From Escherichia coli (lineage in GTDB: Bacteria; Pseudomonadota; Gammaproteobacteria; Enterobacterales; Enterobacteriaceae): a stretch of DNA of 64,000 bases. Position 1 is the stretch's first letter. Every line of letters begins with the position of its first letter. Positions 1 through 27,990 of this stretch are shown here, piece after piece. Location: assembly GCF_001677475.2 (NCBI RefSeq), contig NZ_CP015229.1; one strand, 5' to 3'. The notes beneath the pieces are model-generated. The model did no database searches. It was not told the DNA's origin and saw only the letters and a program-made list of their open reading frames with translations. A program made the position numbers and the translations under genes.

Positions 1-332
1 AATTCTTTATCAATGTTGCGAACAAAGACACCTTCCCGGTAATGACCTTCTTTAGTTCTGCACTGATTAACTTCGCCGTTCCGTCTGGTGGCGGTCACTG
101 GGTTATTCAGGGACCTTTCGTGATACCCGCAGCCCAGGCGCTGGGCGCTGATCTCGGTAAATCGGTAATGGCGATCGCCTACGGCGAGCAATGGATGAAC
201 ATGGCACAACCGTTCTGGGCGCTGCCAGCACTGGCAATCGCCGGGCTCGGTGTCCGCGACATCATGGGCTATTGCATCACTGCCCTGCTCTTCTCTGGCG
301 TCATTTTCGTCATTGGTTTAACGCTGTTCTGA
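1..332 (+). CDS. atoE: Short-chain fatty acid transporter AtoE, C-terminal fragment (5' end lies outside the window)
   Basis: Open frame runs from the window edge to a stop at 330-332; hydrophobic membrane-protein C-terminus directly upstream of atoB as in the ato operon. Confidence 0.7.
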   Translation, partial: FFINVANKDTFPVMTFFSSALINFAVPSGGGHWVIQGPFVIPAAQALGADLGKSVMAIAYGEQWMNMAQPFWALPALAIAGLGVRDIMGYCITALLFSGVIFVIGLTLF

Positions 333-362
333 CGGCAACTCTACAGACAGAAGGAATATAAA

Positions 363-1547
363 ATGAAAAATTGTGTCATCGTCAGTGCGGTACGTACTGC
401 CATCGGTAGTTTTAATGGTTCACTCGCCTCCACCAGCGCCATCGATCTGGGGGCAACAGTAATTCAGGCCGCCATTGAACGCGCAAAACTCGATTCACAA
501 CACGTCGATGAAGTGATTATGGGTAACGTATTGCAGGCCGGGCTGGGGCAAAATCCGGCTCGTCAGGCACTGCTAAAAAGCGGACTGGCAGAAACGGTGT
601 GCGGATTTACGGTCAACAAAGTATGTGGTTCTGGTCTGAAAAGCGTGGCGCTTGCCGCCCAGGCAATTCAGGCCGGTCAGGCACAGAGCATCGTAGCGGG
701 TGGAATGGAGAACATGAGTTTAGCGCCCTATTTACTCGATGCAAAAGCACGCTCTGGTTATCGTCTTGGAGACGGACAGGTTTATGACGTGATCCTGCGC
801 GATGGCCTGATGTGCGCCACTCACGGTTATCATATGGGTATTACCGCCGAGAACGTTGCCAAAGAGTACGGAATTACCCGTGAAATGCAGGATGAACTGG
901 CGCTACATTCACAGCGTAAAGCGGCAGCAGCCATTGAGTCCGGTGCTTTTACCGTCGAAATTGTCCCGGTAAATGTTGTCACACGGAAGAAAAACATCGT
1001 CTTCGATCGCGATGAATTCCCGAAAGTAGATTCTACTGCAGAAGCTCTTGCTGCATTGCGCCCGGCCTTCGACAAAGCCGGAACGGTCACCGCCGGGAAC
1101 GCGTCTGGCATTAACGATGGGGCTGCCGCACTGGTGATTATGGAAGAATCTGCGGCGCTGGCGGCAGGCCTAAAACCACTGGCACGCATTAAAAGCTATG
1201 CCAGCGGTGGCGTGCTCCCTGCATTGATGGGTATGGGGCCAGTACCTGCCACGCAAAAAGCGTTACAACTGGCGGGGCTGCAACTGGCAGACATTGATCT
1301 CATCGAAGCCAATGAAGCATTTGCCGCGCAGTTCCTTGCCGTTGGGAAAACCCTGGGCTTTGATCCTGAGAAAGTGAATGTCAACGGCGGAGCCATCGCG
1401 CTGGGGCATCCTATCGGCGCCAGCGGTGCACGTATTCTGGTCACACTATTACATGCAATGCAGGCTCGCGATAAAACGCTGGGTCTGGCGACGCTGTGCA
1501 TTGGCGGCGGTCAGGGAATTGCGATGGTGATTGAACGATTGAATTAA
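363..1547 (+). CDS. atoB: Acetyl-CoA acetyltransferase (thiolase II)
   Basis: 394-aa ORF with thiolase hallmarks (NKVCGSGLK active-site Cys region, C-terminal CIGGGQG); AGGAA ribosome-binding site upstream. Confidence 0.95.
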
Positions 1548-1555
1548 CCAACAAA

Positions 1556-1590
1556 AACGCCCGATAGCGAAAGTCATCGGGCGTTTTCTT
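1556..1590 (+). terminator. Intrinsic terminator downstream of atoB
   Basis: Hairpin aacgcccgat/atcgggcgtt followed by TTTTCTT immediately after the atoB stop. Confidence 0.6.
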
Positions 1591-1620
1591 AAACATCGAC
1601 AGTGAAAGTAACCTCATTAA

Positions 1621-2157
1621 TTACCAGTCAAAACTTTTCACCAGCGTCAGCTCGCCAGCATTACGCATCGGTACAATAAATGTTTCCTGTTTCTCATTGA
1701 CCGATCCTTCATCGGTGATCAGCGTCAGTTGGGCAGTGGTTAATTCCGTTTCGCTGCGTCCGCCATAGTAGTTGATATACACCTGATAGCGCCCGTGAAC
1801 TGGCGCTGGCATGGCGAAAATCTCGGGGCCGTACCCCGTCGTGACATCCATATCCAGTGCGCCACTGTTTTTCAGCACCGTGTTACCGTACCAGGCGTGT
1901 TCGCCATCAGGCGTGACAACATGGAGATCGAGATCGGTATTGTCCGTATCCCACGAGAGAACCAGCCGTAAACGTGCACGAATCGTTCCTGTACCCGGCG
2001 TTGAGTAAAACTGCATTTTTTGTCGGCTTTGCCCATCCGGGCTGATGACCTGCACGCTGTTGCTGCCTTCAATGCCCTGACGCCAGCGGAAAGTAGGGCT
2101 ATTGCACCAAAACCTACAAGGCCATAAAACCGCCAGCCTTTCGCCTTTTTTAACCAC
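1621..2157 (-). CDS. yfaP: YfaP-like (DUF2135) protein, probably a 5'-truncated remnant
   Basis: 178-aa ORF resembling the C-terminal part of YfaP; the upstream part continues in another frame (ORF 1872-2210) and the gyrA terminator lies only about 110 bp away. Confidence 0.45.
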   Translation of the reverse strand: MVKKGERLAVLWPCRFWCNSPTFRWRQGIEGSNSVQVISPDGQSRQKMQFYSTPGTGTIRARLRLVLSWDTDNTDLDLHVVTPDGEHAWYGNTVLKNSGALDMDVTTGYGPEIFAMPAPVHGRYQVYINYYGGRSETELTTAQLTLITDEGSVNEKQETFIVPMRNAGELTLVKSFDW

Positions 2158-2263
2158 TCATTGCCACATTCCTTGTGTAAAGCCAGCCATTTTTTATGGG
2201 CGATGCACAACTTTATCGCGTCCTAATACGACAAAAGCCCAGACTTTGCAGCCTGGACTTTTC

Positions 2264-2292
2264 AATTCAAAAAAGGGAGATGGCTCCCTTTT
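2264..2292 (-). terminator. Intrinsic terminator of gyrA
   Basis: On the minus strand, hairpin AAGGGAGCCATCTCCCTT followed by a T-run, just downstream of the gyrA stop. Confidence 0.6.
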
Positions 2293-2309
2293 GACATGAA
2301 TAAATAAAA

Positions 2310-4937
2310 TTATTCTTCTTCTGGCTCGTCGTCAACGTCCACTTCCGGAGCGATTTCATCGTCCCCTTCCGCAGCACTGCCGTCGATGGTATCCAGATCT
2401 TCCTCGTCAACCGGTTCAGCAACACGTTGCAGACCCACTACGTTTTCATCTTCCGCAGTACGGATGAGGATCACGCCCTGGGTGTTACGGCCCACGATGC
2501 TGATTTCTGAAACGCGAGTACGTACCAGCGTACCGGCATCGGTGATCATCATGATCTGGTCGCAATCATCTACCTGCACCGCGCCAACCACTAAACCGTT
2601 ACGTTCGGTGACCTTGATGGAGATAACCCCTTTCGTCGCACGTGACTTGGTTGGGTATTCCGCCACTGCGGTACGTTTACCATAACCGTTCTGCGTTGCG
2701 GTGAGGATTGCGCCATCGCCACGAGGCACGATCAGAGAGACGACTTTATCGCCTTCGCCTAAGCGAATACCGCGCACACCTGTGGTATTGCAGCCCATCG
2801 CACGGACAGAAGACTCTTTAAAGCGCACCACTTTACCTTCGGCGGAGAACAGCATTACTTCGTCTTCGCCACTGGTCAGGTCAACGCCGATCAGCTCATC
2901 GCCTTCAACCAGCTTGATCGCCACTTTACCGGCGGTACGCAGACGGTTGAATTCGGTGAGGACGGTTTTCTTCACAGTACCGTTAGCCGTCGCCATGAAG
3001 ACTTTCACGCCTTCTTCAAACTCGGTCACTGGCAGGATCGCGGTGATACGTTCGTCCTGCTCCAGGGGCAGCAGGTTGACGATCGGACGACCACGTGCAC
3101 CACGAGAGGCTTCCGGCAACTGATAGACTTTCATCGAATAGACACGGCCACGGCTGGAGAAGCACAGGATATGGTCGTGGGTGTTCGCCACCAGCAGTCG
3201 GTCGATAAAGTCTTCTTCTTTAATACGTGCGGCAGATTTACCTTTCCCGCCACGACGCTGCGCTTCGTATTCCGAAAGCGGCTGGTACTTCACGTAGCCC
3301 TGGTGAGAGAGCGTCACGACCACATCTTCCTGAGTGATCAGATCTTCCAGGTTGATGTCTGCGCTGTTGGCAGTGATTTCAGTACGACGTTTGTCGCCGA
3401 ACTGTTCACGAACCAGTTCCAGCTCTTCGCGGATCACTTCCATCAGACGATCGGCGCTACCCAGAATACGCAGCAGTTCCGCGATCTGATCCAGCAGCTC
3501 TTTGTATTCATCGAGCAGTTTTTCGTGCTCAAGGCCGGTCAGTTTCTGCAAACGCAGATCCAGAATTGCCTGAGCTTGCTGTTCGGTCAGGTAGTACAGA
3601 CCGTCACGCACGCCGAACTCTGGCTCCAGCCATTCCGGACGCGCAGCATCGTCACCCGCACGCTCCAGCATCGCGGCAACGTTGCCCAGCTGCCACGGAT
3701 TAGCAACCAGCGCGGTTTTCGCTTCTGCAGGCGTCGGCGCATGACGGATCAGTTCAATGATCGGGTCGATGTTCGCCAGTGCTACGGCTAATGCTTCAAG
3801 GATATGAGCACGATCGCGGGCTTTACGCAGTTCGAAAATGGTACGACGGGTCACCACTTCGCGACGGTGACGGACAAACGCAGCGATAATGTCTTTCAGG
3901 TTCATGATCTTCGGCTGACCATGGTGCAATGCCACCATGTTGATACCGAAAGAAACCTGCAACTGGGTCTGGGAGTAGAGGTTGTTGAGCACCACTTCAC
4001 CGACCGCATCGCGTTTAACTTCAATCACGATGCGCATACCGTCTTTGTCAGACTCGTCACGCAGCGCGCTGATGCCTTCCACGCGTTTTTCTTTTACCAG
4101 TTCCGCAATCTTCTCGATCAGGCGCGCTTTGTTCACCTGATACGGAATTTCGTGGACGATAATGGTTTCACGCCCGGTTTTGGCGTCAACCTCCACTTCA
4201 GCACGGGCGCGGATATATACCTTGCCGCGACCGGTACGGTAAGCTTCTTCAATACCGCGACGACCGTTAATGATTGCCGCCGTCGGGAAGTCCGGCCCCG
4301 GGATGTGTTCCATCAGCCCTTCAATGCTGATGTCTTCATCATCGATATACGCCAGACAACCGTTGATGACTTCCGTCAGGTTGTGCGGCGGGATGTTGGT
4401 TGCCATACCTACGGCGATACCGGAAGAACCGTTCACCAGCAGGTTAGGAATTTTGGTTGGCATGACGTCGGGAATTTTTTCCGTGCCGTCATAGTTATCA
4501 ACGAAATCGACCGTCTCTTTTTCGAGATCGGCCATCAGTTCATGGGCAATTTTCGCCAGACGGATTTCCGTATAACGCATTGCCGCCGCAGAGTCGCCGT
4601 CGATGGAACCGAAGTTACCCTGACCGTCTACCAGCATGTAACGCAGCGAGAATGGCTGCGCCATACGGACGATCGTGTCATAAACCGCCGAGTCACCATG
4701 GGGATGGTATTTACCGATTACGTCACCAACGACACGGGCAGATTTTTTATAGGCTTTGTTCCAGTCATTGCCTAGTACGTTCATGGCGTAAAGTACGCGA
4801 CGGTGTACCGGCTTCAGGCCATCTCGGACATCTGGCAGCGCACGGCCAACAATGACCGACATCGCATAATCCAGATAGGAGCTCTTCAGCTCTTCCTCAA
4901 TGTTGACCGGTGTAATTTCTCTCGCAAGGTCGCTCAT
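2310..4937 (-). CDS. gyrA: DNA gyrase subunit A
   Basis: 875-aa ORF; N-terminus [47 protein letters not shown], active-site Tyr region and acidic C-terminal tail. Confidence 0.97.
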
Positions 4938-5083
4938 CTAACCGCTATCCCTCTACTGTATCCCGGATTCAAAGGTCGCAAATTATAACACAGCCGCGCA
5001 GATTGAGGTAAACCTATACGCTTTATTCACATCCAATGCCTGATATACTCGTTTGTCTTGCCAATTACGGAGTAGAAGTGCCA

Positions 5084-5806
5084 ATGAATGCCGAAAAATC
5101 GCCGGTAAACCATAACGTAGACCACGAAGAGATCGCTAAATTTGAAGCCGTCGCCTCCCGCTGGTGGGATCTTGAAGGTGAGTTCAAACCGCTGCACCGC
5201 ATTAACCCGCTGCGTCTGGGCTATATTGCCGAGCGTGCTGGCGGTTTATTTGGCAAAAAGGTGCTCGATGTCGGTTGTGGCGGCGGCATTCTGGCCGAGA
5301 GTATGGCGCGCGAAGGCGCGACGGTGACCGGTCTGGATATGGGCTTTGAGCCATTGCAGGTGGCGAAACTGCACGCACTGGAAAGCGGCATTCAGGTAGA
5401 TTACGTGCAGGAAACCGTGGAAGAGCACGCGGTAAAACATGCCGGGCAATATGATGTGGTGACCTGCATGGAGATGCTGGAGCACGTCCCCGATCCGCAG
5501 TCAGTGGTCAGAGCCTGTGCACAACTGGTGAAACCGGGCGGCGATGTCTTTTTCTCGACGCTTAACCGCAACGGCAAGTCATGGCTGATGGCGGTGGTTG
5601 GTGCGGAATATATTTTGCGCATGGTGCCTAAAGGCACGCATGATGTGAAGAAGTTTATTAAACCGGCAGAGCTGCTTGGCTGGGTAGATCAGACAAGCCT
5701 TAAAGAGCGACATATAACCGGGCTACATTACAACCCGATCACTAATTCCTTTAAGCTTGGCCCCGGCGTGGATGTGAACTATATGCTGCACACGCAGAAT
5801 AAATAA
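5084..5806 (+). CDS. ubiG: Bifunctional 3-demethylubiquinone / 2-polyprenyl-6-hydroxyphenol O-methyltransferase
   Basis: SAM-methyltransferase motif [13 protein letters not shown]; start set at ATG 5084 ([11 protein letters not shown]...), giving 240 aa rather than the longer ORF-track start. Confidence 0.93.
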
Positions 5807-5813
5807 AATTGTT

Positions 5814-5848
5814 TGCCGGATAAGGTGCTCGCACCACATCCGGCTACA
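5814..5848. repeat. REP-like palindromic element between ubiG and yfaL
   Basis: tgccggataagg...catccggctac with inverted GCCGGAT/ATCCGGC halves, resembling enterobacterial REP units. Confidence 0.45.
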
Positions 5849-5866
5849 ATGCCGGACGCAAAGCAG

Positions 5867-8800
5867 CTACCATTTCACCGTCATCGTCAAAAACCCTGTA
5901 GTCTGGGCAAAATCATCACTCCCTTTCTGCCACGCCATGCTACCACGCAGCGAAACTCGCTGACTGATATTGCCCGTTACTCCAACTTTTATTTCACCCC
6001 GTTGCTTCACCGCATCGTCACTGATAGTGCTGCCATCCTCTTCAATTTCCGTCGCATGGGGATCGTGATAATAATTCAGATCTAACGTTGGTGTGACATG
6101 AACAGCGGTACGCCATTCGCTGTGTAAACCCAGCCGCGTCTGAATATCATCACCCTGCGATTGTGACACGCGTGCATGGTTAGCGGCGGTAAAGTCATCC
6201 TGCAGCACGCCCTGATAAATCACCTGCGCCTGCGGTTCAATCACCACACCACGCTCCGGTAACCACTGATACCCCGCCTCCAGCGAGGCGATAATCCCCG
6301 ACGAGTGGTAATGATCTGTGCCATCGTCTTGTTCGGAAACATCATTGTTAAACCACGCGTATTGCAGCCAGCTATCCAGCCAGGCCCCCTGCTTCTGATT
6401 ACCGTGCTGAAACCAGCTTGAGGTCAGCCCAACGGCAAAACCGTGGTTCTGGTTATCGGCGCGAGTTCCAGTCATATTCGAGCGGCTGTCGCCCTGGTTA
6501 TCGCTGTAGCCACCTACAATCCCAAGCATCCACTCGCCATCATCGCCCCAGCGCCCCCTAAACAGGTCACCGCTAAGCTGCACCGTAGAAGTGTCTTCAT
6601 GCTGAGCCAGTTGCCTTGCCGCCGTGTAATGATAACGTCCGCCGATAACACGTAAATTCAGCGTCTGACCATCGCCACCAGCGTGATCGCGTCGCTCCAT
6701 CACAAACGCCTGATTTGCCGCCCGCAGGTTATTGAGATAACCGCCAACTTTGGCATTCAGCACCGGCTGGTAAGCGGGGATTGGATCGGGTGTTGGGTCA
6801 GGATCGGGTGTTGGGTCCGGGTCTGGATCAGGTGGCGATGGCGGCGTTACTTCTTGCGATCGCAGATACCAGTCGTTGTTATCTTCCACCAGCGTGTAGT
6901 CATACGCTCCCATGTTGACGTAGCCACTGCCTGCCAGACTGAACTGCGCATTGTTTTGAAACTGCGTGGGATCAGCTGCGAAATCAACCACTTTAATGCC
7001 TGTAGATGTCGGCTCACCAATCCCTGTAATGGGGTTAACCACAACCGTGGTATTGCCAGCAGTATTACCGTTCAACACCAACTGGTCGCTTGCTGAGTCA
7101 TCGCCGTTTAATTCGCTGTCGAGCAGTAACGTACCGCCGCCGGTGTAATCACCGTTTACCGTCAGCGTATCGCCAACGACGCCATTTTGCAGGCTAACCG
7201 CACCGGATGTATTGGTCAGATCACCATTAACCGTCACATCGGCAAGATAGGTCAGGTTGTCAGTTTCAAGGTTGGTATTAAGCTCACCTGTCAACGTCAC
7301 GCCATCGGTGGCATTCACCAGCGTCCCATCGCCGTTAAACAGTGAGGCATTAAGGGCGACAGAAGTATCCTGCCCGGTCAGGCGCAAAACCGTACCATCG
7401 CTGATGTCGATAGTGCCGCTGGAAGTAGCATCAATTGACTGAATATCCTGATCCGAGCCAGTAACGAACGTTGCCCCATCACCGACCCACAGTGACGAAG
7501 CATAAGGAAGAATATCCGCAACATCACCTTTCAGGGTGCCTTCTTCGACACGTACCGCCGACTGCGTTGTACCGCTGGCGGTCAGCTCCAGCGTGCCTGC
7601 ACCGGTTTTCGTCAGTGTGGTTCCCGCGTCCTGGTGCTGTCCACTGCTGTCGGCCATCAATGCGCCCCACTGCGTGTCGACCCCCGCATCAACTGCCACT
7701 TCACCGTCGGCGCGCATTTCAATATCACGCCCATGCTCAGTCGTTGTAGAGCGAGTATCGACATTGGCAGTAATCTCCATCACGCTTTCTTGTTGATTAT
7801 CGGTAAAGATAACCTGGCGGTTGTAATGGGTATCTCCAAGCTGCGAGTTGTCGCTCACCATCAGCGTACCGGAGGCGATTTGCGTTGTGCCGAGGTATTG
7901 ATTGTCATTTGCCAGGCTGACCTGCCCGTCACCCGCATCGATCACCACGTAGACGCCATCTTTCCCGTCGCCGCCGATATGCATATCGTTTCCGCCTGCA
8001 AGATCCACCACATCCTGACTGCCGATAACCGTACCGCCGTTGCCGCTGACTTCAAGGCCATCGTTGTATGATGTGCCGCTCTGCCAGGTGGAGAAATCAG
8101 AGAGATCGAGCACACCGCCGTTTAACACAATCGACTGCGGATCGTCCTGGAGAGCGGCAAGATCTGCCGCGTCGCCTTCCAGTGAAAGCACCGCACCATC
8201 ATCAACGACTATATCGCCGGTTAGCGCCATCGACTGCGCCCCCGCCAGCACATAGCTGCCGTTTTGCGCAATGGTGAGCTGACCAGCACCTTTGATGGTG
8301 CCAGCAAAACTGCCTTGATTAACAGTAACATTGCCACCAGCATCGATATTTAAAGTGCCATTCTGAAAGCCCGTCAATGAGTGCACAAAGGTTTGTTGGG
8401 TGGAGCCAACATTTAGCTCTGCCTGATTCTGGTACTTATCAATACTCCCTATCGTCAGACCGTAGCAGTCTTGCGGATCGTCCTGGCAATGCGTATCGCC
8501 GACATTCATCAGGGAGTTGCTGCGGCCCAGGGTAACTTCACCGTTTTCAATCTGCATCTCACCAGTAAAGTCATTGTTATCTGCATTAAGTACCAGATCG
8601 CCGGAACCTGTTTTGGTGATTAACCCGGTACCTGCAATAGAGTCAACAGCTCCGTCATTCTCTGTATTGCCGATAACCAGCGTTTTTCCGTCGGCAATAT
8701 CAAAGGTAACTTCACTTAAGCCGAGATACATAAAGCCACCCGCCGCAGTAGAAGGACCATCTCCATAGCCTGCTGCGCTATTGTTCTCATCCACTAACAC

Positions 8801-9607
8801 GCCGCCGTTCTGGCTGTAGCTGTCATCAACAGAAATATCAATAAGATAGGGAGCCGTCGCGCTATTGGTATATATCGCCCCGCCATAACCTTCAGCAGTG
8901 TTATTTGTAAAGGCGGTGTTATTTATTATCGTATAACCTGAAGGATGCGTGATATCGCTATTATTATCTGTGACATCAATTGCGCCGCCATCGCCATCAC
9001 TGTAACTTGTTGATGTATATGCCTGGTTATTGTTAAAAATATCATCACTTAAATAGATATCATTATTGATGGTATAAATTGCACCACCTTTACCGTCATT
9101 AGCGATGTTATTGCTAAACACGGCGTTAGTGACACGTAAATCGACGGTACCAGTATCATTAGTACCAGAAGAATAGATTGCGCCACCATAACCGCCTGCG
9201 ACGTTACCAGAAAAAATAACATCAGTAAGATTCAGCGTTGAGTTTTCTTTAGCAAATATTGCCCCACCGTTATTATATTCTCCTGTAACGGTGTTATTGG
9301 CAAACAGAGTCATTCCTGTGTTATTTTCTGGTAATAGTGAAAATTCCGCTCCCTGTTGCAAAAATACGGCTCCTCCGCTGGCATTATTGGTCATATCAGA
9401 AAAAACCAGCCATTGCCCATCGGCGACACTCCAGTCCTGCGTAATGCCTGAAAGGCTTTGCCTGCTGGCGTGACAACTCGCTTTGATATCATATCCCTGG
9501 CATAAATCAATGGCCGCCGCGACACCGTTAGCAGAGAAAAGAGATGCAATCATTGACGGGAGTAGAGATAAATACTCCTTGCGTAGAAAGATAATCCGCA
9601 TATTCAT
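5867..9607 (-). CDS. yfaL: Autotransporter (type Va) adhesin: GGAIY-repeat passenger, Pro/Asp/Thr-rich linker, C-terminal beta-barrel
   Basis: 1246-aa ORF with signal peptide, repeated G(Y/K/D)GGAI(Y/F) motifs, PDPDPTPDP linker, and beta-barrel domain ending in ...TVKW. Confidence 0.9.
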   Translation of the reverse strand: MNMRIIFLRKEYLSLLPSMIASLFSANGVAAAIDLCQGYDIKASCHASRQSLSGITQDWSVADGQWLVFSDMTNNASGGAVFLQQGAEFSLLPENNTGMTLFANNTVTGEYNNGGAIFAKENSTLNLTDVIFSGNVAGGYGGAIYSSGTNDTGTVDLRVTNAVFSNNIANDGKGGAIYTINNDIYLSDDIFNNNQAYTSTSYSDGDGGAIDVTDNNSDITHPSGYTIINNTAFTNNTAEGYGGAIYTNSATAPYLIDISVDDSYSQNGGVLVDENNSAAGYGDGPSTAAGGFMYLGLSEVTFDIADGKTLVIGNTENDGAVDSIAGTGLITKTGSGDLVLNADNNDFTGEMQIENGEVTLGRSNSLMNVGDTHCQDDPQDCYGLTIGSIDKYQNQAELNVGSTQQTFVHSLTGFQNGTLNIDAGGNVTVNQGSFAGTIKGAGQLTIAQNGSYVLAGAQSMALTGDIVVDDGAVLSLEGDAADLAALQDDPQSIVLNGGVLDLSDFSTWQSGTSYNDGLEVSGNGGTVIGSQDVVDLAGGNDMHIGGDGKDGVYVVIDAGDGQVSLANDNQYLGTTQIASGTLMVSDNSQLGDTHYNRQVIFTDNQQESVMEITANVDTRSTTTEHGRDIEMRADGEVAVDAGVDTQWGALMADSSGQHQDAGTTLTKTGAGTLELTASGTTQSAVRVEEGTLKGDVADILPYASSLWVGDGATFVTGSDQDIQSIDATSSGTIDISDGTVLRLTGQDTSVALNASLFNGDGTLVNATDGVTLTGELNTNLETDNLTYLADVTVNGDLTNTSGAVSLQNGVVGDTLTVNGDYTGGGTLLLDSELNGDDSASDQLVLNGNTAGNTTVVVNPITGIGEPTSTGIKVVDFAADPTQFQNNAQFSLAGSGYVNMGAYDYTLVEDNNDWYLRSQEVTPPSPPDPDPDPTPDPDPTPDPIPAYQPVLNAKVGGYLNNLRAANQAFVMERRDHAGGDGQTLNLRVIGGRYHYTAARQLAQHEDTSTVQLSGDLFRGRWGDDGEWMLGIVGGYSDNQGDSRSNMTGTRADNQNHGFAVGLTSSWFQHGNQKQGAWLDSWLQYAWFNNDVSEQDDGTDHYHSSGIIASLEAGYQWLPERGVVIEPQAQVIYQGVLQDDFTAANHARVSQSQGDDIQTRLGLHSEWRTAVHVTPTLDLNYYHDPHATEIEEDGSTISDDAVKQRGEIKVGVTGNISQRVSLRGSMAWQKGSDDFAQTTGFLTMTVKW
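6783..6835. repeat. Imperfect 18-bp tandem repeat inside yfaL (encodes the PDPDPTPDPDPTPDP linker)
   Basis: ggatcgggtgttgggtca followed by ggatcgggtgttgggtcc and a degenerate third copy. Confidence 0.6.
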
Positions 9608-10134
9608 CTAACCATCATTTTATATAAGACGACGTATTTAATCGCATTATACGATATGGGTTATCTTTCTTTTGTAAATTGTTCAACCCGATGCAATGGC
9701 TATTTTGTTATTATTTGATGAATAGTATCAGTGCGTCATAATTCAAGTTAATAACCTTAAGGGATATCAGTTATATTTAAACTAAATTAAAGTAATGAAT
9801 AATTTTCTTATAATATAAGGTAAATTAACAAAATGGCTTCGCATTTAACAATAACCGAATAGAAAACAACCATTTCAGCATCAACAATCGCTTACATTCG
9901 CTTATATATTGACCACAACTGATACATCAGATTATGTGATGACTCGTGCTTAGATCAATTTTTGCAATGATTAGCAAAAAGATTAATAAACCATCTATAT
10001 CAATTTATCTAACCTATTCTGCCGTTCAAGAAATCGCCGAACAGTTATTTTTAACAAATTTTTCTCTTCCCATTGACTTTCCCGGACACCTTGTCTGACC
10101 TAAGGTGCGCGAAAGCCACTTTTTCCTTCCTGAG

Positions 10135-10155
10135 TTATCCACAAAGTTATGCACT
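10135..10155 (+). promoter_or_regulatory. Two adjacent DnaA-box-like sites upstream of nrdA
   Basis: TTATCCACA (10135-10143, matches TTATNCACA) and TTATGCACT (10147-10155, 8/9 match); DnaA control of nrdAB is established. Confidence 0.55.
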
Positions 10156-10173
10156 TGCAAGAGGGCCATTTTC

Positions 10174-10220
10174 ACACTATCTTGCAGTGAATCCCAAACA
10201 TACCCCCTATATATAGTGTT
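10174..10220 (+). promoter_or_regulatory. Two NrdR-box-like palindromes in the nrdA promoter/5' leader
   Basis: acactatcttgcagtg (10174-10189) and ccctatatatagtgtt (10205-10220), about three helical turns apart, upstream of the nrdA start at 10297. Confidence 0.5.
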
Positions 10221-10296
10221 CTAAGCAGCTTCCCGTACTACAGGTAGTCTGCATGAAACTATTGCGGAAAGAATTCCAAAAACAGGTACGACATAC

Positions 10297-12582
10297 ATGA
10301 ATCAGAATCTGCTGGTGACAAAGCGCGACGGTAGCACAGAGCGCATCAATCTCGACAAAATCCATCGCGTTCTGGATTGGGCGGCAGAAGGACTGCATAA
10401 CGTTTCGATTTCCCAGGTCGAGCTGCGCTCCCACATTCAGTTTTATGACGGTATCAAGACCTCTGACATCCACGAAACCATTATCAAGGCTGCCGCAGAC
10501 CTGATCTCCCGTGATGCGCCGGATTATCAGTATCTCGCCGCGCGCCTGGCGATCTTCCACCTGCGTAAAAAAGCCTACGGCCAGTTTGAGCCGCCTGCGC
10601 TGTACGACCACGTGGTGAAAATGGTCGAGATGGGCAAATACGATAATCATCTGCTGGAAGACTACACGGAAGAAGAGTTCAAGCAGATGGACACGTTTAT
10701 CGATCACGACCGTGATATGACCTTCTCTTATGCTGCCGTTAAGCAGCTGGAAGGCAAATATCTGGTACAGAACCGCGTGACCGGCGAAATCTACGAAAGC
10801 GCCCAGTTCCTTTATATTCTGGTTGCCGCGTGCCTGTTCTCGAACTACCCGCGTGAAACGCGCCTGCAATATGTGAAGCGTTTTTACGACGCGGTTTCCA
10901 CATTTAAAATTTCGCTGCCGACGCCAATCATGTCCGGCGTGCGTACCCCGACTCGTCAGTTCAGCTCCTGCGTACTGATCGAGTGCGGCGACAGCCTGGA
11001 TTCCATCAACGCCACCTCCAGCGCGATTGTGAAATATGTTTCCCAGCGTGCCGGGATCGGCATCAACGCCGGGCGTATTCGTGCGCTGGGTAGCCCGATT
11101 CGCGGTGGCGAAGCGTTCCATACCGGCTGCATTCCGTTCTACAAACATTTCCAGACAGCGGTGAAATCCTGCTCTCAGGGCGGCGTGCGCGGCGGTGCGG
11201 CAACGCTGTTCTACCCAATGTGGCATCTGGAAGTGGAAAGCCTGCTGGTGTTGAAAAACAACCGTGGTGTGGAAGGCAACCGCGTGCGCCATATGGACTA
11301 CGGGGTACAGATCAACAAACTGATGTATACCCGCCTGCTGAAAGGTGAAGATATCACTCTGTTCAGCCCGTCCGACGTACCGGGGCTGTACGACGCGTTC
11401 TTCGCCGATCAGGAAGAGTTTGAACGTCTGTATACCAAATATGAGAAAGACGACAGCATCCGTAAGCAGCGTGTGAAAGCCGTTGAGCTGTTCTCGCTGA
11501 TGATGCAGGAACGTGCGTCTACCGGTCGTATCTATATTCAGAACGTTGACCACTGCAATACCCATAGCCCGTTTGATCCGGCCATCGCGCCAGTGCGCCA
11601 GTCAAACCTGTGCCTGGAGATAGCCCTGCCGACCAAACCGCTGAACGACGTCAACGACGAGAACGGTGAAATCGCGCTGTGTACGCTGTCTGCTTTCAAC
11701 CTGGGCGCAATTAATAGCCTGGATGAACTGGAAGAGCTGGCAATTCTGGCGGTTCGTGCACTTGACGCGCTGCTGGATTATCAGGATTACCCGATCCCGG
11801 CCGCCAAACGTGGAGCGATGGGTCGTCGTACGCTGGGTATTGGTGTGATCAACTTCGCTTACTACCTGGCGAAGCATGGTAAACGCTACTCCGACGGCAG
11901 CGCCAACAACCTGACGCATAAAACCTTCGAAGCGATTCAGTATTACCTGCTGAAAGCGTCTAATGAGCTGGCGAAAGAGCAAGGCGCGTGCCCGTGGTTT
12001 AACGAAACCACTTACGCGAAAGGGATCCTGCCGATCGATACTTATAAGAAAGATCTGGATGCCATCGCTAATGAGCCGCTGCATTACGACTGGGAAGCTC
12101 TGCGTGAGTCAATCAAAACGCACGGCCTGCGTAACTCCACGCTTTCTGCTCTGATGCCCTCCGAGACTTCTTCGCAGATCTCTAACGCCACTAACGGTAT
12201 TGAACCGCCGCGCGGTTACGTCAGCATCAAAGCGTCGAAAGACGGTATTCTGCGCCAGGTGGTGCCGGATTACGAGCATCTGCACGACGCCTATGAGCTG
12301 CTGTGGGAAATGCCGGGTAACGATGGCTACCTGCAACTGGTGGGTATCATGCAGAAATTTATCGATCAGTCGATCTCTGCCAACACCAACTACGATCCGT
12401 CACGCTTCCCGTCAGGAAAAGTGCCGATGCAGCAGTTGCTGAAAGACCTGCTCACCGCCTACAAATTCGGGGTCAAAACGCTGTATTATCAGAACACCCG
12501 TGACGGTGCTGAAGACGCACAAGACGATCTGGTGCCGTCAATCCAGGATGATGGCTGCGAAAGCGGCGCATGTAAGATCTGA
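10297..12582 (+). CDS. nrdA: Ribonucleoside-diphosphate reductase 1 alpha subunit (class Ia)
   Basis: 761-aa ORF; N-terminal ATP-cone (MNQNLLVTKRDGSTERINLDKIHRVL), catalytic core, C-terminal Cys pair. Confidence 0.97.
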   Translation: MNQNLLVTKRDGSTERINLDKIHRVLDWAAEGLHNVSISQVELRSHIQFYDGIKTSDIHETIIKAAADLISRDAPDYQYLAARLAIFHLRKKAYGQFEPPALYDHVVKMVEMGKYDNHLLEDYTEEEFKQMDTFIDHDRDMTFSYAAVKQLEGKYLVQNRVTGEIYESAQFLYILVAACLFSNYPRETRLQYVKRFYDAVSTFKISLPTPIMSGVRTPTRQFSSCVLIECGDSLDSINATSSAIVKYVSQRAGIGINAGRIRALGSPIRGGEAFHTGCIPFYKHFQTAVKSCSQGGVRGGAATLFYPMWHLEVESLLVLKNNRGVEGNRVRHMDYGVQINKLMYTRLLKGEDITLFSPSDVPGLYDAFFADQEEFERLYTKYEKDDSIRKQRVKAVELFSLMMQERASTGRIYIQNVDHCNTHSPFDPAIAPVRQSNLCLEIALPTKPLNDVNDENGEIALCTLSAFNLGAINSLDELEELAILAVRALDALLDYQDYPIPAAKRGAMGRRTLGIGVINFAYYLAKHGKRYSDGSANNLTHKTFEAIQYYLLKASNELAKEQGACPWFNETTYAKGILPIDTYKKDLDAIANEPLHYDWEALRESIKTHGLRNSTLSALMPSETSSQISNATNGIEPPRGYVSIKASKDGILRQVVPDYEHLHDAYELLWEMPGNDGYLQLVGIMQKFIDQSISANTNYDPSRFPSGKVPMQQLLKDLLTAYKFGVKTLYYQNTRDGAEDAQDDLVPSIQDDGCESGACKI

Positions 12583-15180: not shown

Positions 15181-15248
15181 TGTGAGACATGAGATTGATG
15201 ACAAATGTAAGATTGCCTGATTCGCCACACTTAGTTGGCCTGTAGTCT

Positions 15249-15338
15249 TTACCATGCGTAATAATTCGTTTTCACCTGATTTTGGTCCACTTTGTGAATT
15301 AGCGATATATATTTATCCAATTTAGGGAAGTGACAATG
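15249..15338 (-). pseudogene. Decayed 3' remnant of an inaA paralog
   Basis: Minus-strand translation HCHFPKLDKYISLIHKVDQNQVKTNYYAW* aligns with the InaA C-terminus HDFRQLEKYLEPIPKADWEQVKAYYYAM*; DNA also aligns with 14111-14190; an in-frame stop lies just upstream. Confidence 0.5.
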
Positions 15339-15645
15339 ACTCCAGGTAGAAACCGGTATGAAGCGCCCGACTCACTGTCAAAACCGATTGTTGAGAGTAA
15401 TGACACTCCGGCGAACAGTACACAGTTTACTCTGGAGCCATTCTCAATCTGCAAGTGGGATGCCTAATAACTTGTCAGGGAAGTTATCAATATCTGTTTG
15501 TTACTTATTACCGTGTTTATTAACAATAATGATACTTTCTAACATGCGTAAAGGTCTTCGTAATAAAATGAGCTAAATTTGATAGTGAATATATTCTGCA
15601 AAGATTAAATTGTATCTAGTTAACTCACAATACAAGGAATCATTT

Positions 15646-16716
15646 ATGCCAAATACATCTATTCAATTATCTCGCTGTAATATTTTACAAAATAATAAAT
15701 TGCAAACAGCAGAAATTTACAAAGAATCACAACAAACCGCGAAACTTGAGATTTTTTGCAATGAGTTTCTAAAAATATCTCAAAGTAGATTCGGGTTATC
15801 AACCTCAGCAGACAACATAGCTAATTTATTGGCTTTTTTCACGAAAGCCTCAGATGAAATTGATAGTATCAAAACCCAAAAAATTGACGTTCACAGTTAT
15901 GGTTTCGTACCAATAAGACATTTTGTCGAGCATGTCATAACGTATAAAAATGAATTTGCAGAAGATTATGAACCCTATACCCTTACCTTTACCCGAGGTG
16001 AAAACAACGAAGGTGTTTTGAGTATCGAAAGCAAAGAAGGGTTTCTTTCAGAAAGAACAATAAATTTAAATGAATATGAAACTGCAATTAACATCATCAA
16101 TGAGCATGTTGCAAAAGAAAATATCAATAACAAGATCCAAACATTGACAGACAAAGACACACCAAAAATAACCAACTCTGACAAAATTTATAAATTTATC
16201 CACGAGTTAAATATAAGAACTCAACTTTACAGCAAGCAAAAAGAATATACAGACCTGCTACTACATTCTGAGAAAAATACAGAATGGTACAAATACACAT
16301 CCTCCGAGGAACGCTATGATGTATTTAAGAATTCTTCTAAAAAAATTGAAAATACCTACAAGCAAATTGTGCAAGCGCAGAAAAAATTGAAGCAAATGAA
16401 ATACATCAATAAATTAAGTGGTGAGCTTATCGATATCGCCGACAAAAAGTTAGCACCATTAATAAATGATAGTTTCAGCTATACACGAGATTTCTTTGCT
16501 TACTCAAAAAATGAAAAAAATATCTTCACATTTGATAATTCTAAGTTTTTAGATCCAAAGGAAAAAGAAGGTTTAATGATACAACACAGCAATGGGCAAC
16601 TGGTTATTACTGGTAAATATTGCCCTGAAGGTATGCAAACAGCATTCACCCAAGAACAATATGATAAATTAATAAGATACATTAATATTTTCTTTACTTT
16701 CCAGAAATGCGAATAA
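15646..16716 (+). CDS. Hypothetical protein, AT-rich orphan, Lys/Asn/Glu/Ile/Tyr-rich, no signal peptide or TM segment
   Basis: Long intact ORF in a visibly AT-rich segment; ATG at 15646 preceded by AAGGAA (ORF-track start 15610 is TTG); no family recognised. Confidence 0.6.
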   Translation: MPNTSIQLSRCNILQNNKLQTAEIYKESQQTAKLEIFCNEFLKISQSRFGLSTSADNIANLLAFFTKASDEIDSIKTQKIDVHSYGFVPIRHFVEHVITYKNEFAEDYEPYTLTFTRGENNEGVLSIESKEGFLSERTINLNEYETAINIINEHVAKENINNKIQTLTDKDTPKITNSDKIYKFIHELNIRTQLYSKQKEYTDLLLHSEKNTEWYKYTSSEERYDVFKNSSKKIENTYKQIVQAQKKLKQMKYINKLSGELIDIADKKLAPLINDSFSYTRDFFAYSKNEKNIFTFDNSKFLDPKEKEGLMIQHSNGQLVITGKYCPEGMQTAFTQEQYDKLIRYINIFFTFQKCE

Positions 16717-16903
16717 TACTGTACATTATAAACTGCATTACAATTTATTATTGAGCCCTATTCATACTGTTTAAAGAATAACAATACCCAGTGTTAGCTT
16801 TCCTAACAAATGAGTTTTACGCAAATATGTTGGCATCTTTTTTAACAGGATGCTCAGGTGAATGAATAGAATAACCGGTAGTAGCATTATTTCGCTTTAG
16901 CTG

Positions 16904-19648: not shown

Positions 19649-23713
<4,065 letters not shown>

Positions 23714-23721
23714 TCTTCACT

Positions 23722-23745
23722 GGCAGGACGTGAAAACCTCCTGCC
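23722..23745 (+). terminator. Hairpin after glpC
   Basis: ggcagga-cgtgaaaacc-tcctgcc immediately 3' of the glpC stop. Confidence 0.4.
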
Positions 23746-24085
23746 ATTCATATCCACGCTGAATATTTCAGAATAACTGCTCTCTATTTTTTTACTTAAC
23801 TTCACATTTCCATGTATTGACACTCGCTATCTAAAAGTAGCTTTATTATGTCCCTTCAGAAACTAATTGATATAAATAATAATATTCACCACCACATTAC
23901 CTAAAAGAATAATAATATACGATTATTAAAAATTAAACATATTCACCAGCATTATATGTTTAGAATTACTTTGATAGTTCCCGCAAAAAAAATGTTTATA
24001 AATATTTATTTGCGTATATAATCCCGTCTGTTTAATATATTAAAAACATAATATTATTCCATTCATCAATATAAAAGGAACTTAA

Positions 24086-24676
24086 GTGAAAGCAAAAATT
24101 CTCATTCCATCGTTATCTGTTCTCTTGATGGGTATATCGGCTTTAAGTTATGCGGACACTCCTGCCGGTAAAGTTCATTTCAATGGGCTAATTACTGCAT
24201 CAACTTGTGACTTAGAGCAAGGTACAGGCAAGGGACAGAATGACCAGACCGTAACGCTTCAGACAGTGGACGTTGCTGATTTTGGCGCTGCTGTAGGTAA
24301 TGAAGCAGCAAACTCTGCAACAGATTTTAATATTAATCTTACCGGTTGTACGACACAATTAGGTAGCATCAACCTTGAATTTAGCGGTAATACCACCGAT
24401 GCCACCGATAATACAGCCCTGGCAATTGACACCGGTGCAGATAAAGCAACAGGCGTAGGGATTCGTATTTATCGTGAAGGTGCTTCTTCACCGATTAATT
24501 TTGCTACTGATCGTACCGATGCAGAAAGCTCTGCGGTAACACTTTCATCCATTAGCCCAACCAATGGTGATGGCAAGCATAGCTTTAATTATAAAGCGGT
24601 TTATGTCAGAACAGCAGATACAATTACTGAAGGTCAGGGTAACGCGACTGCGGATTATCGTATCGCTTACTATTAA
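24086..24676 (+). CDS. Fimbrial major subunit (chaperone-usher pilin)
   Basis: 196 aa, signal peptide MKAKILIPSLSVLLMGISALSYA, Cys pair, C-terminal beta-strand ...YRIAYY; GTG start with AAGGAA RBS. Confidence 0.8.
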   Translation: MKAKILIPSLSVLLMGISALSYADTPAGKVHFNGLITASTCDLEQGTGKGQNDQTVTLQTVDVADFGAAVGNEAANSATDFNINLTGCTTQLGSINLEFSGNTTDATDNTALAIDTGADKATGVGIRIYREGASSPINFATDRTDAESSAVTLSSISPTNGDGKHSFNYKAVYVRTADTITEGQGNATADYRIAYY

Positions 24677-24733
24677 TGATATATTTCAAAGGGGTGAAAT
24701 TACTACACCCCTTAATTACTAAAGTAAAAATGC

Positions 24734-25438
24734 ATGAAAAAATACTCTTTATTACTGATTGTATTATTTGCCAACATTGCTTACGGGGGAGTGGTTATTC
24801 GGGGAACAAGAATTATTTACCCGTCCACGGCGCGGGAAATCCCTGTAGAAGTGACGAATCAAGATAAAGAGCGTTCATACCTTGTTCAGGCCTGGATGAG
24901 TGACTTTGCCAATGATGCAAATAAGAAAACGCCATTTGTACTCACTCCGCCGTTAGTTAAACTGGAAGCTCAGAAAAACACGCTTTTCCGCTTAATCTAT
25001 ACCGGTACGCAAAAATTGCCGGAGGATCGTGAATCCATTTTTTGGCTAAATGTAAAATCCATTCCTGGGATGTCAGAAGAGTCTTCACAGGTGCCGAATC
25101 AACTGCAATTTGCCGTTCAGAGCCAGCTCAAAGTTTTTTATCGTCCGCTGGGGCTTGCTGATGATGCCAATACCGCCTATAGCAAAATCGCTTTCCGGAT
25201 ACAAGGCAACAGGCTAATCGCCAAAAACCCAACACCTTACTTTGTCACCTTCCGCACTCTGGCAGTGAATGGTAAGCCCGTATCGTATAAAGGAAACGGC
25301 GTTGTGAAAATGATGCTCAATCCATTTGGCGAGCAAACATATACTCTGACCGCATCCTCTTCTGAAAACAATAGTGTTGAATGGTCAGCAATAAATGATT
25401 ACGGCGGTACGACAAATACCATAAAGACCCGGTTATAA
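24734..25438 (+). CDS. Periplasmic fimbrial chaperone (PapD-like)
   Basis: 234 aa, signal peptide, conserved chaperone motifs (GTRIIYP, LxQxW, FWLNVKSIP). Confidence 0.85.
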   Translation: MKKYSLLLIVLFANIAYGGVVIRGTRIIYPSTAREIPVEVTNQDKERSYLVQAWMSDFANDANKKTPFVLTPPLVKLEAQKNTLFRLIYTGTQKLPEDRESIFWLNVKSIPGMSEESSQVPNQLQFAVQSQLKVFYRPLGLADDANTAYSKIAFRIQGNRLIAKNPTPYFVTFRTLAVNGKPVSYKGNGVVKMMLNPFGEQTYTLTASSSENNSVEWSAINDYGGTTNTIKTRL

Positions 25439-25499
25439 GCGCAATAGATTGTTCAGGAAAACGACAGGAATTATCTCGTACAAGGAAAGTAATAATAAC

Positions 25500-27986
25500 A
25501 TGAACTCCTTACATCTATTTTGTTTGCATGTTGTTGTAACAATAGTGCCATTGACACTGTTACAAAACAGTTACGCCCGCGAGGTGTTTAATTACAAACT
25601 TTTAGAGTCAGGGGCTTCAGAAAGCGAACTGGAAGCCATTAAAAATTTTGACAAAAATGATGGCCTGGTGCCCGGTAAATATCGGGTCGATGTTTTTATG
25701 AATAATCAACGCATTACACGTAAAGATATTGATTTTGTCGTTGATGATAAAGCGAACAAACTCTTACCTGTGTTAAGCAAAAAAGAGTATATCGCTATGG
25801 GGGTTGCCGATAGCCCCTCCGCGTCATTTGCCACGCTGGCAAATGACGATATCGTGACGAATTTAGAAAATTATATTCCCTTTTCATCAGTGCGCTTTGA
25901 GCAAAGTTCGCTGCGTCTGTATCTGTCAGTTCCACAACTGGCGATGAACAATGCCGCAAACGGGTATATTGATCCGGTTTTATGGGATAATGGATTGCCT
26001 GCGTTGTTTACAAATTACTATTTTAGCGGCTCACATAATTGGCAAGATGGTCGTTCAGATAATAGTTCATATCTTAATCTGAATAATGGTATTAATCTTG
26101 GTCCCTGGCGTTTAAGAAATAACATTAATTATAACGATGGCACCTGGCAAAATATTGATACCTATATCTGGCGAAATATCCCTGCGTTAACCAGCAAACT
26201 CATTCTTGGCGATACCTGGACAGATTCAGCCGTTTTCGATAGTTTCCAGTTTCGCGGGGTAAAACTGGAAAGTAATGAAAATATGCTTCCTTACAGCATG
26301 AGAGGTTTTGCCCCCGTTATTCGCGGCGTTGCCAAAAGCAATGCGCAAGTGACGATTCGACAAAATAATTATATTATTTACCAAAGTACGGTATCCCCAG
26401 GTCCTTTCGAATTACATGATGTCTCTCCTGTTTCTTCTGGTGGGGATATGGAAGTCACGGTAAAAGAATCTGATGGTAGCGAACAAAAATATATTCAGGC
26501 ATCAGCTTCAATTCCTGTCATGCGCCGAGAAGGAGCCATGTCTTATAGTTTATCTGGCGGAGAATATCGCTCATCTGATAACTCCCATGATAAACCCGGC
26601 TTTGCTCAGGCGACGCTGATTTACGGTTTACCTGCAGGCATTACCCTCTATGGTGGCACAATTTTTGCCAGTGATTATCGTTCTGGCGCATTAGGTGCGG
26701 GTGTCGATTTACAACACTTTGGCTCGCTTTCAGCAGACATTACTCGTTCATATAGCCAGACGGTTGATGACAGTTCACAACAAGGACAATCTTACCGATT
26801 GCTTTACTCGAAAAATTTCTCCAGCACTGAAACGAATATCACGCTTGCTGGCTACCGTTATTCCACAGAGAATTTCTATACCTTTAGCGAAGCACAAAAT
26901 AATAAAGAGTATGATGAGGACGACGCGTTTTCATACCGTAACAACTATAACCGCCATCGTCGGTTACAACTTACCATTAATCAGGCGATCCCCTCGTTTG
27001 GTCAGTTCAATATTTCAGGCTATCAACAAGATTATTGGGGACTCGGGGGTAAAGAGCGCAGCCTCAGCGTAGGGTATAGTCATAGTTGGGAAAATGTGAG
27101 TTTTAGCCTAAGTTATTTACTGACACGAATGCCAGACAATAATAAGAACGATCAACAACTCTCACTTTCTGTCAGCGTTCCACTAGGAAAATGGTTACCT
27201 GGTGCGCATGTTAATTACAATAACACCAGCAGTAATAGCGGTCACACTTTAAACAGTGTGGCGCTTAACGGTACTGCGCTGGAAGATAATAATCTCAGTT
27301 ATAGTCTGCAACAAAGTCATGGCGATCAAGGTTATGGTGGCAATACGTCACTCAGTTATCGCTCCAGTAAAGGCGTAATAGGCGCAGGCTGGAACTATAG
27401 TCAGGATCAACGGCAATTAAATTACAATATGCAGGGCGCAATTGTTCTGCATCCGTATGGATTAACCCTTGCCCAGTCTTTAGGTGAATCATCGATTCTG
27501 GTGCGCGCCCCTGATGCCAGTGGGCTGGGCATTAACAGAGGAACGTCGGTTTATACCGACTGGCGAGGATACTCCATCATCCCTTACGCATCAGCATTTC
27601 AGCGCAACCGTATCGCCATCAATACGCAAACCTTGCCGTCAAATGTTGAAATACCGGAACCGGTACAAGAAGTTATTCCTACGGAAGGCGCATTAGTCGT
27701 AGCCAATTTTTCAACGCGATATGGTCAGAAATTACTTTTAACCTTAATGCATAAAGACAAATTTGTTCCCTTTGGAGCCGTAGTCACTGCTGAAGATGAG
27801 CAAATTTCAACCCTCGTTGGGCGAAACGGTGAAACGTATTTATCCGGCGTACAAGCTAATCAAAAATGGCAAGTCAAGTGGGGAAAATCGGCCACTGAAA
27901 GTTGCCAGGTTCATATATCACCAGAACTACTTCAGACACCGCAAAACATGACTAATCTTATTATTGCCACCGCAGCGTGTGATTAA
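25500..27986 (+). CDS. Outer-membrane fimbrial usher
   Basis: About 829 aa from ATG 25500 (ORF-track start 25449 is TTG); usher-sized beta-barrel protein with C-terminal Cys pair. Confidence 0.85.
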   Translation: MNSLHLFCLHVVVTIVPLTLLQNSYAREVFNYKLLESGASESELEAIKNFDKNDGLVPGKYRVDVFMNNQRITRKDIDFVVDDKANKLLPVLSKKEYIAMGVADSPSASFATLANDDIVTNLENYIPFSSVRFEQSSLRLYLSVPQLAMNNAANGYIDPVLWDNGLPALFTNYYFSGSHNWQDGRSDNSSYLNLNNGINLGPWRLRNNINYNDGTWQNIDTYIWRNIPALTSKLILGDTWTDSAVFDSFQFRGVKLESNENMLPYSMRGFAPVIRGVAKSNAQVTIRQNNYIIYQSTVSPGPFELHDVSPVSSGGDMEVTVKESDGSEQKYIQASASIPVMRREGAMSYSLSGGEYRSSDNSHDKPGFAQATLIYGLPAGITLYGGTIFASDYRSGALGAGVDLQHFGSLSADITRSYSQTVDDSSQQGQSYRLLYSKNFSSTETNITLAGYRYSTENFYTFSEAQNNKEYDEDDAFSYRNNYNRHRRLQLTINQAIPSFGQFNISGYQQDYWGLGGKERSLSVGYSHSWENVSFSLSYLLTRMPDNNKNDQQLSLSVSVPLGKWLPGAHVNYNNTSSNSGHTLNSVALNGTALEDNNLSYSLQQSHGDQGYGGNTSLSYRSSKGVIGAGWNYSQDQRQLNYNMQGAIVLHPYGLTLAQSLGESSILVRAPDASGLGINRGTSVYTDWRGYSIIPYASAFQRNRIAINTQTLPSNVEIPEPVQEVIPTEGALVVANFSTRYGQKLLLTLMHKDKFVPFGAVVTAEDEQISTLVGRNGETYLSGVQANQKWQVKWGKSATESCQVHISPELLQTPQNMTNLIIATAACD

Positions 27987-27990
27987 CATC

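Follow-up and report, generated by a model that had tools for sequence, protein, structure and literature searches.

In Escherichia coli, the 762 bp that separate atoB from gyrA in the genome studied here (NCBI RefSeq assembly GCF_001677475.2, contig NZ_CP015229.1) are the scar of an 8,736-bp deletion from an ancestral yfaA-yfaT-yfaS-yfaQ-yfaP operon (b2230-b2225 in K-12). The window, i.e., the whole stretch of 64,000 nucleotides that we analysed, carries the scar at positions 1548-2309. We regard it as likely that the full explanation holds: a deletion scar made by two short-repeat joints, an accidental reading frame running across it, and the loss of the YfaS complex.

The atoB-gyrA interval retains both ends of the yfa operon

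The genes of this part of the window are, in order, the 3' end of atoE, atoB, a 178-codon open reading frame (ORF), gyrA, ubiG and yfaL. According to the ORF list, the atoB stop is at 1547 and gyrA at 2310, in line with the gap of about 760 bp given in an earlier note on this sequence. The corresponding interval of K-12 MG1655 measures 9,499 bp and its annotation contains the block named in that note, the minus-strand genes yfaP, yfaQ, yfaS, yfaT and yfaA, with yfaS as a pseudogene. The K-12-like layout is also found in six other complete E. coli genomes, where a 1,504-aa gene of the alpha-2-macroglobulin (A2M) family is intact.

The deletion and its endpoints can be read directly from the blastn alignment to K-12, a comparison that the earlier note had proposed for locating the junction. 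Window 1-2071 corresponds to K-12 2,325,747-2,327,817 and window 2070-5802 to K-12 2,336,552-2,340,285; 8,736 bp are missing relative to K-12, plus one base in a homopolymer run, and the K-12 spacing is not short. The lost DNA includes the whole of yfaT, yfaS and yfaQ, the larger part of yfaA and the first 40% of yfaP, counted from its 5' end. No yfaQ, yfaS or yfaT sequence was found within 1548-2309 by blastn against K-12. The left endpoint lies inside yfaP, as the earlier note had suggested, with the stop codon and the last 150 codons kept (1621-2071). The right endpoint, which was absent from that note together with the composite short-repeat junction described below, lies inside yfaA, with which the operon begins; the ATG, some 30 codons and the whole yfaA-gyrA intergenic region are kept (Table 1). 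The retained 451 nt of yfaP and 90 nt of yfaA are collinear with intact alleles, and these stubs are 90-97% identical to K-12. There is no insertion sequence (IS), filler or foreign DNA at the junction: the blastn blocks abut with a 2-5 nt overlap and every base belongs to yfaP or yfaA.

Table 1. Features of the atoB-gyrA interval, sites involved in the junction and domains of the intact Yfa proteins. Positions are those of the window unless another locus is named.
Feature	Position	Strand	Sequence or domain	Basis and remarks
atoB (acetyl-CoA acetyltransferase)	363-1547	+		ORF list, K-12 annotation; left flank of the scar
Hairpin between convergent atoB and yfaP, intact	1554-1587	both		Folding
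178-codon chimeric ORF	1621-2157	-		ORF list; GTG start at 2157
yfaP 3' remnant (stop codon and YfaP residues ~113-259)	1621-2060	-	DUF2135/YfaP_C included	blastn, Pfam
Junction 22-mer	2061-2082	-	TGCTGCCTTCAATGCCCTGACG	Site comparison, direct-repeat family D11
yfaA 5' remnant	2083-2161	-		ATG at 2161-2159; alignment, start-region comparison, SNP table
yfaA-gyrA intergenic region, kept	2162-2309	-		Folding, divergence
gyrA	2310-4937	-		ORF list; right flank; 97.1% identity to K-12
yfaP breakpoint, intact alleles			...CACGCTGT TGCTGCCTTCA GTGAAAA...	
Site A, in the deleted part of yfaA	11333-11354 of the K-12 locus (L001)		...GACGAA TGCTGCCTTCA ATGCCCAGACG ATCGGC...	
yfaA breakpoint (site B), intact alleles			...ATATTGCA ACGCCCAGACG CCAGCGGAAAG...	
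YfaA			DUF2138	Pfam, intact relative L002
YfaT			DUF1175	Pfam, intact relative L002
YfaS			MG2, A2M bait region (A2M_BRD), A2M, bMG10	Pfam, intact relative L002
YfaQ			DUF2300	Pfam, intact relative L002
YfaP			DUF2135	Pfam, intact relative L002

Since stubs of both end genes remain, the block was once present. This excludes the second option of the earlier note, that the strain never acquired it and that the short atoB-gyrA spacing is ancestral. The block is indeed missing, with no yfaP or yfaA stub left, from certain complete E. coli genomes (N3, SW4848, 1190, 19KM1831 and others), as that option would have it, but the window keeps collinear pieces of both genes and of the yfaA-gyrA intergenic region, and the block is near-universal in the species; we give the idea practically no weight. 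A collapse or mis-join in one assembly is just as far-fetched. Nothing speaks for it, and the same 70-nt junction occurs in nine independent NCBI and Logan assemblies and, with one base difference, in an ENA contig that is 2% diverged from the window (OLSJ01000009.1, hereafter L023).

The yfaA remnant has changed further since the block was intact. The A-run at 2151-2146 has lost 1 nt (A7 to A6) in both the window and L023, and codon 4 (2152-2150) has become TAA by a lineage-specific G-to-T change that is absent from loci L005-L008 and from L023. Judged by this distribution, the TAA is younger than the scar.

The flanks of the scar keep features that look like transcription terminators. The hairpin next to atoB has a folding energy of -20.7 kcal/mol (z = -6.2) on the plus strand and an identical stem on the minus strand, and is probably a bidirectional terminator shared by atoB and yfaP. 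Two strong minus-strand hairpins just 3' of the gyrA stop (2234-2261 and 2262-2299; -32.1 kcal/mol, z = -5.8) are the likely gyrA terminators; they sit about 75-140 bp from the start of the 178-codon ORF, and the earlier note had placed a gyrA terminator about 110 bp beyond it. These hairpins emerged only by folding, as a scan of the locus for consensus promoters and terminators returned nothing relevant. No Rfam family scored above threshold in the locus (STnc310 on the atoB terminator reached 24.5 bits, for a gathering score of 40).

The flanking genes also differ in their similarity to other strains. For atoB, identity to K-12 and to six further E. coli alleles is only 91.6%, against 97.6% for the atoE 3' end and 97.1% for gyrA, and the gene differs from that of the diverged relative L023 at 6 of 1,185 sites; it looks like a divergent allele moved by recombination. 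Over the 238 bp at 2072-2309, i.e., the yfaA stub and the intergenic region, divergence from seven E. coli reference alleles is 9-10%, which exceeds that of the flanking gyrA (~2%) and of the yfaP stub (1-6%). Either a foreign haplotype or a relaxation of constraint following the deletion could account for this. The gyrA of the window has the wild-type Ser83 and Asp87.

The junction is a composite of short direct repeats

The window junction reads ...CACGCTGT TGCTGCCTTCA ATGCCCTGACG CCAGCGGAAAG... and can be compared directly with three sites of the intact operon (Table 1). The first 11 nt of the junction 22-mer are common to the yfaP breakpoint and to an internal yfaA site (site A) that lies in the deleted DNA; the last 11 nt are common to site A and to the yfaA breakpoint (site B). 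Site A shares 11 nt with the former breakpoint and 9-13 nt with the latter: TGCTGCCTTCA is found at yfaP and site A, and GCCCAGACG (13/15 nt when extended) at sites A and B. The three sites are all preserved across seven diverse intact alleles. The repeats at the breakpoints are thus present in the intact progenitor and one copy is left at the junction, which is the pattern of a deletion between short repeats.

The resemblance between the junction and site A is close. The 22-mer matches K-12 site A at 21 of 22 positions, and the version of L023, which has A and not T at 2078, matches at 22 of 22; on this comparison the T at 2078 is a later substitution and L023 keeps the older state. We simulated 20,000 random deletions within the K-12 interval and compared each junction 22-mer with the DNA removed by the same deletion; none matched at more than 19 of 22 positions. 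Direct repeats of at least 11 nt form only 24 families in the 9.5-kb interval, and the pair made by yfaP and site A is one of them (D11, with a spacing of 8,525 bp).

We infer from these sequences that the junction probably arose by slipped misalignment at two adjacent short-direct-repeat joints. In joint 1, the 11-nt repeat in yfaP would have been joined to the same 11-mer at site A, removing 8,525 bp. In joint 2, GCCCAGACG (CAAYGCCCAGACG) at site A would have been joined to its copy 211 bp further in yfaA, at site B, removing 211 bp. The two joints may correspond to successive slippage deletions, in either order, or to a single replication event in which the template was switched twice. The codon phase is equal at both 11-mers, as given by their coordinates, and the joint between yfaP and site A alone would therefore produce an in-frame YfaA(1-101)::YfaP(110-259) fusion. 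The 211-bp loss shifts this frame and, together with the 1-nt loss in the A-run and the TAA that this sub-lineage has at codon 4, destroys the yfaA frame.

Slipped misalignment between short repeats yields deletions independently of RecA; the lacI deletion spectra of E. coli are the classic example. The deletion in the window resembles the short-direct-repeat deletions of these spectra in that repeats, here of 9-13 nt, flank the lost DNA in the intact progenitor, one copy is kept and there is neither filler nor IS. It differs from them in having two joints back to back, 11 nt apart, an arrangement more typical of serial template switching.

If the deletion took place in two steps, intermediate alleles would be expected, whose junctions would be CACGCTGTTGCTGCCTTCAATGCCCAGACGATCGGC for joint 1 only and GACGAATGCTGCCTTCAATGCCCAGACGCCAGCGG for joint 2 only. 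The joint-1-only allele (yfaP to site A) was found in 0 of 5,426 complete E. coli genomes. The BLAST query for the 211-bp-only deletion did not separate the alleles, since its two halves are joined in intact genomes. An exact pattern scan of the GTDB species representatives, able to detect the 211-bp-only intermediate and not the yfaP-site A one, found no junction, and a pattern scan of metagenome contigs with the same reach found only the final junction.

As no intermediate allele was found among the complete genomes (for joint 1) or in the pattern scans, a single-step join is still a live rival. Illegitimate recombination or end-joining would in that case have linked yfaP (...CCTTCA|) directly to site B (|A[C/T]GCCC...) through 1-2 bp of microhomology (CA), and the likeness to site A would be a coincidence. 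The blastn output fits such a join, with just two collinear blocks overlapping by 2-5 nt, and the T at 2073 can be explained by a site B allele like that of strain C8. It leaves unexplained, however, why the 11 nt before the yfaP breakpoint are identical to those that precede a near-copy of site B in the deleted DNA, and none of the 20,000 simulated deletions reached even 20/22, against the 21-22/22 observed. We hold the one-step join to be possible and clearly less probable than the two short-repeat joints.

The base at 2073 was also considered as proof that the junction had passed through site A. It is T in the window and C at site B of six of the seven intact alleles. We rejected this argument, because site B of strain C8 carries T as well and the window shares further C8-like variants nearby in the yfaA stub; the base is not decisive. 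The nearest genome with an intact block would be informative in this respect: CAACGCCC at its site B would support passage through site A, and CAATGCCCAGACG would not discriminate between the two explanations.

The 178-codon ORF most likely arose by accident

The ORF that spans the scar starts at a GTG that follows the yfaA ATG by 4 nt and has the native AGGA in front of it. It consists of 28 out-of-frame yfaA codons and then follows the yfaP frame from the junction on. Its residues 29-178 are identical to residues 110-259 of intact YfaP (strains WCHEC020031 and O157:H7), and it matches Pfam PF09906 (DUF2135/YfaP_C) over residues 119-164 (E = 1.7e-18, 66.9 bits for a cut-off of 22), in agreement with the earlier description of this ORF as resembling the C-terminal part of YfaP. 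It is not a full-length YfaP, which has about 258-259 aa including a signal peptide. The deletion took away the N-terminal region (MRKIFLPLLLVALSPVAHS...) and the 90 residues that follow it, so that the signal peptide and the 109 N-terminal residues are gone, and neither yfaQ nor the A2M-family gene adjoins the remnant. The overlapping ORF 1872-2210 (minus strand), which the earlier note took for the upstream portion of YfaP continuing in another frame, does exist, but it has a different identity: its conserved part, KKAKGWRFYGLVGFGAIALLSAGV, corresponds to residues 5-28 of K-12 YfaA, i.e., to the YfaA N-terminus.

With the yfaA frame destroyed, the ORF most likely owes its 178 codons to a chance fusion of reading frames across a pseudogene remnant. 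We infer its lack of function from its composition: loss of function is expected because the signal peptide, the 109 N-terminal residues and the operon partners are all missing.

The other possibility is that the ORF is a functional, selected gene that produces a cytoplasmic YfaP_C/DUF2135 domain from the yfaA promoter and ribosome-binding site, which would fit any mechanism of deletion. The ORF is open in both diverged lineages, and its start codon sits behind the native AGGA. All five SNPs that loci L006 and L007 have in it are synonymous, the pN/pS of the yfaP remnant between the window and L023 is 0.11, and the remnant shows zero amino-acid differences from some intact alleles. This synonymous bias is mostly made of standing polymorphisms, clustered like recombination patches: 11 of the 15 differences between the window and L023 in the yfaP stub are standing polymorphisms of intact yfaP alleles, and the lineage-unique changes (two non-synonymous and two synonymous) have no power either way. 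The product would moreover lack a signal peptide and its partner proteins and begin with 28 out-of-frame yfaA codons, and the probability that 29 codons stay open by chance is about 0.25. A functional gene is therefore very improbable. A further reading is a shade less probable still: the template would have been switched twice in a row during a single replication event (yfaP to site A, then to site B, with 11 nt copied between), and a deep-branching E. coli clade would express the resulting 178-aa ORF and keep it as a DUF2135 protein that stands alone.

Purifying selection on the stub ORF was considered separately and rejected. The SNPs of L006 and L007 cluster at 1538-1924, and the differences from L023 are mostly polymorphisms found among intact alleles; recombination with donors that have an intact yfaP accounts for this pattern, and selection on the stub need not be invoked. 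L006 and L007 have nine substitutions within ~390 bp of this segment, which covers the end of atoB, the terminator and the yfaP stub, and none in gyrA; the cluster looks like a short recombination patch from a strain with intact yfaP.

In public assemblies the stub goes under the name 'DUF2135 domain-containing protein', with a length of 178 or 150 aa; the label of pseudogene remnant would be more appropriate.

The scar marks a rare and deep-branching lineage

The distribution of the block and of the junction was established by direct counts. The whole K-12 yfa block, used as query, is covered over at least 80% of its length in 5,179 of the 5,426 complete E. coli genomes, and at least in part in 5,397 of them. 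This presence/absence survey, suggested by the earlier note, makes the block ancestral and near-core in E. coli. The junction of the window, on the other hand, is found in 0/5,426 of these genomes. Its carriers are at least ten independent draft assemblies, including GCA_018683295.1, GCA_018683435.1, GCA_016118665.1, GCA_040939905.1 and OLSJ01, and the Logan runs ERR10434976, ERR2138142, ERR2135263, SRR32301445 and SRR22006506. The exact 178-aa product is present in 44 blocks of the public assembly collection, and the 150-aa call in 43 contigs labelled E. coli.

Nine carrier loci differ from the window by 0-15 substitutions (the stretch compared being at most window 1-5806). The tenth, L023, is more distant, with differences at 60 of 2,628 gyrA positions (2.3%). 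L023 shares the junction, the A7-to-A6 loss and the unusual right-flank haplotype, and the scar is thus identical by descent and not recent. These shared features support a single origin of the junction in the nine close assemblies and L023.

The lineage is an unusual one: the highest identity that it reaches with a complete E. coli genome is 98.3% for 20 kb of men/nuo, and 95.6% for window 1-12000. A lineage-specific 26-mer of gyrA had no match among the GTDB species representatives. The junction provides a clean identical-by-descent marker for this rare, deep-branching E. coli lineage, which is absent from the 5,426 complete RefSeq genomes.

The lost system is an alpha-2-macroglobulin operon

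The yfa operon encodes the A2M-family protein YfaS, presumed to be of type II, and four accessory proteins (Table 1). None of the YfaS domains (MG2, A2M_BRD, A2M and bMG10) is present in the interval of the window, and the accessory genes are reduced to the 90-nt stub of the DUF2138 gene and the C-terminal DUF2135 part. The carrier lineage lacks the YfaS complex.

The mag operon of Pseudomonas aeruginosa is, like yfa, organised around a large periplasmic A2M-family protein, and the two are presumably equivalent gene for gene (e.g., YfaP would be MagF). The window has lost the yfa system and does not represent a variant of mag. In magABCDEF, the thioester-less type II A2M MagD works as a multi-protein periplasmic complex and depends on the partners encoded in its operon; it forms an inner-membrane-associated assembly with MagA, MagB and MagF, and traps a protease (PMC5764988). 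MagD also shields against some type VI secretion system (T6SS) effectors that target peptidoglycan (PMC12663445). If these P. aeruginosa data carry over, strains with the scar would be without one periplasmic layer against proteases and some peptidoglycan-targeting T6SS effectors. Our literature search on yfaS and yfaP returned nothing on this locus, and the papers on the mag operon make no mention of yfa.

Other strains have lost parts of the locus in different ways. The complete genome of MLI110 has a yfaQ'-'yfaS deletion together with a yfaA frameshift, and strain 300490 has a yfaS-yfaT-'yfaA deletion; the endpoints of both are unlike those of the window. In KFu022, a deletion from atoE' through yfaA' leaves a yfaA 5' stub, as in the window, but its endpoints differ. 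The class of N3, SW4848, 1190 and 19KM1831 has neither block nor stubs, a non-homologous atoB-gyrA spacer of about 110-140 bp and a different gyrA 3' end. These alleles are independent losses and none has the junction of the window. An O157:H7 strain has a stop in yfaQ. The repeated erosion of the operon (yfaS in K-12, yfaQ in O157 and at least four other deletion alleles) suggests that the system is dispensable in many niches. The scar of the window is an ordinary lineage-specific loss, a known kind of event that leaves current understanding unchanged, and is notable only for its tidy short-repeat junction.

The atoB-gyrA spacer of the N3/SW4848 type (L017 1647-1758 and L020 1648-1759, in N3, SW4848 and similar genomes) shows no homology to K-12 and contains a hairpin of its own, and the gyrA of these genomes encodes 879 aa versus 875. 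The spacer may be a replacement by foreign DNA.

Other differences from K-12 in the window

Several further segments of the window differ from K-12. Between a yfaH pseudogene fragment and glpQ, 1.7 kb at 15190-16903 are absent from K-12 and contain an ORF of 368 aa (15610-16716) with no Pfam match. The segment is annotated as a hypothetical protein and a LysR-family regulator, and since it is present in 1,044 of the 5,426 complete E. coli genomes, K-12 has the deleted form there. At 23704-29112, the window has a chaperone-usher fimbrial operon of four genes in the place that rpnE-ypaA-yfaU-yfaV-rhmD-yfaX (the L-rhamnonate cluster) occupy in K-12. Its products are a fimbrial subunit, a chaperone of the PapD type, an usher of 845 aa and a fimbrial/adhesin-like protein of 357 aa. 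Two K-12 segments are without counterpart in the window, yfbK (1.56 kb, at ~50709-50730) and yfbN-yfbO-yfbP (2.56 kb, at ~52567-52586), and the yfbL-yfbM segment between these gaps is only 92.3% identical to K-12.

Closer to the scar, the longest ORF of ubiG (5036-5806) begins 48 nt upstream of the annotated start of the 240-aa protein, and gene callers take the 240-aa form. The product of yfaL (5867-9607) varies between 1,222 and 1,258 aa among otherwise near-identical members of the lineage, which suggests variation in repeat number in this autotransporter.
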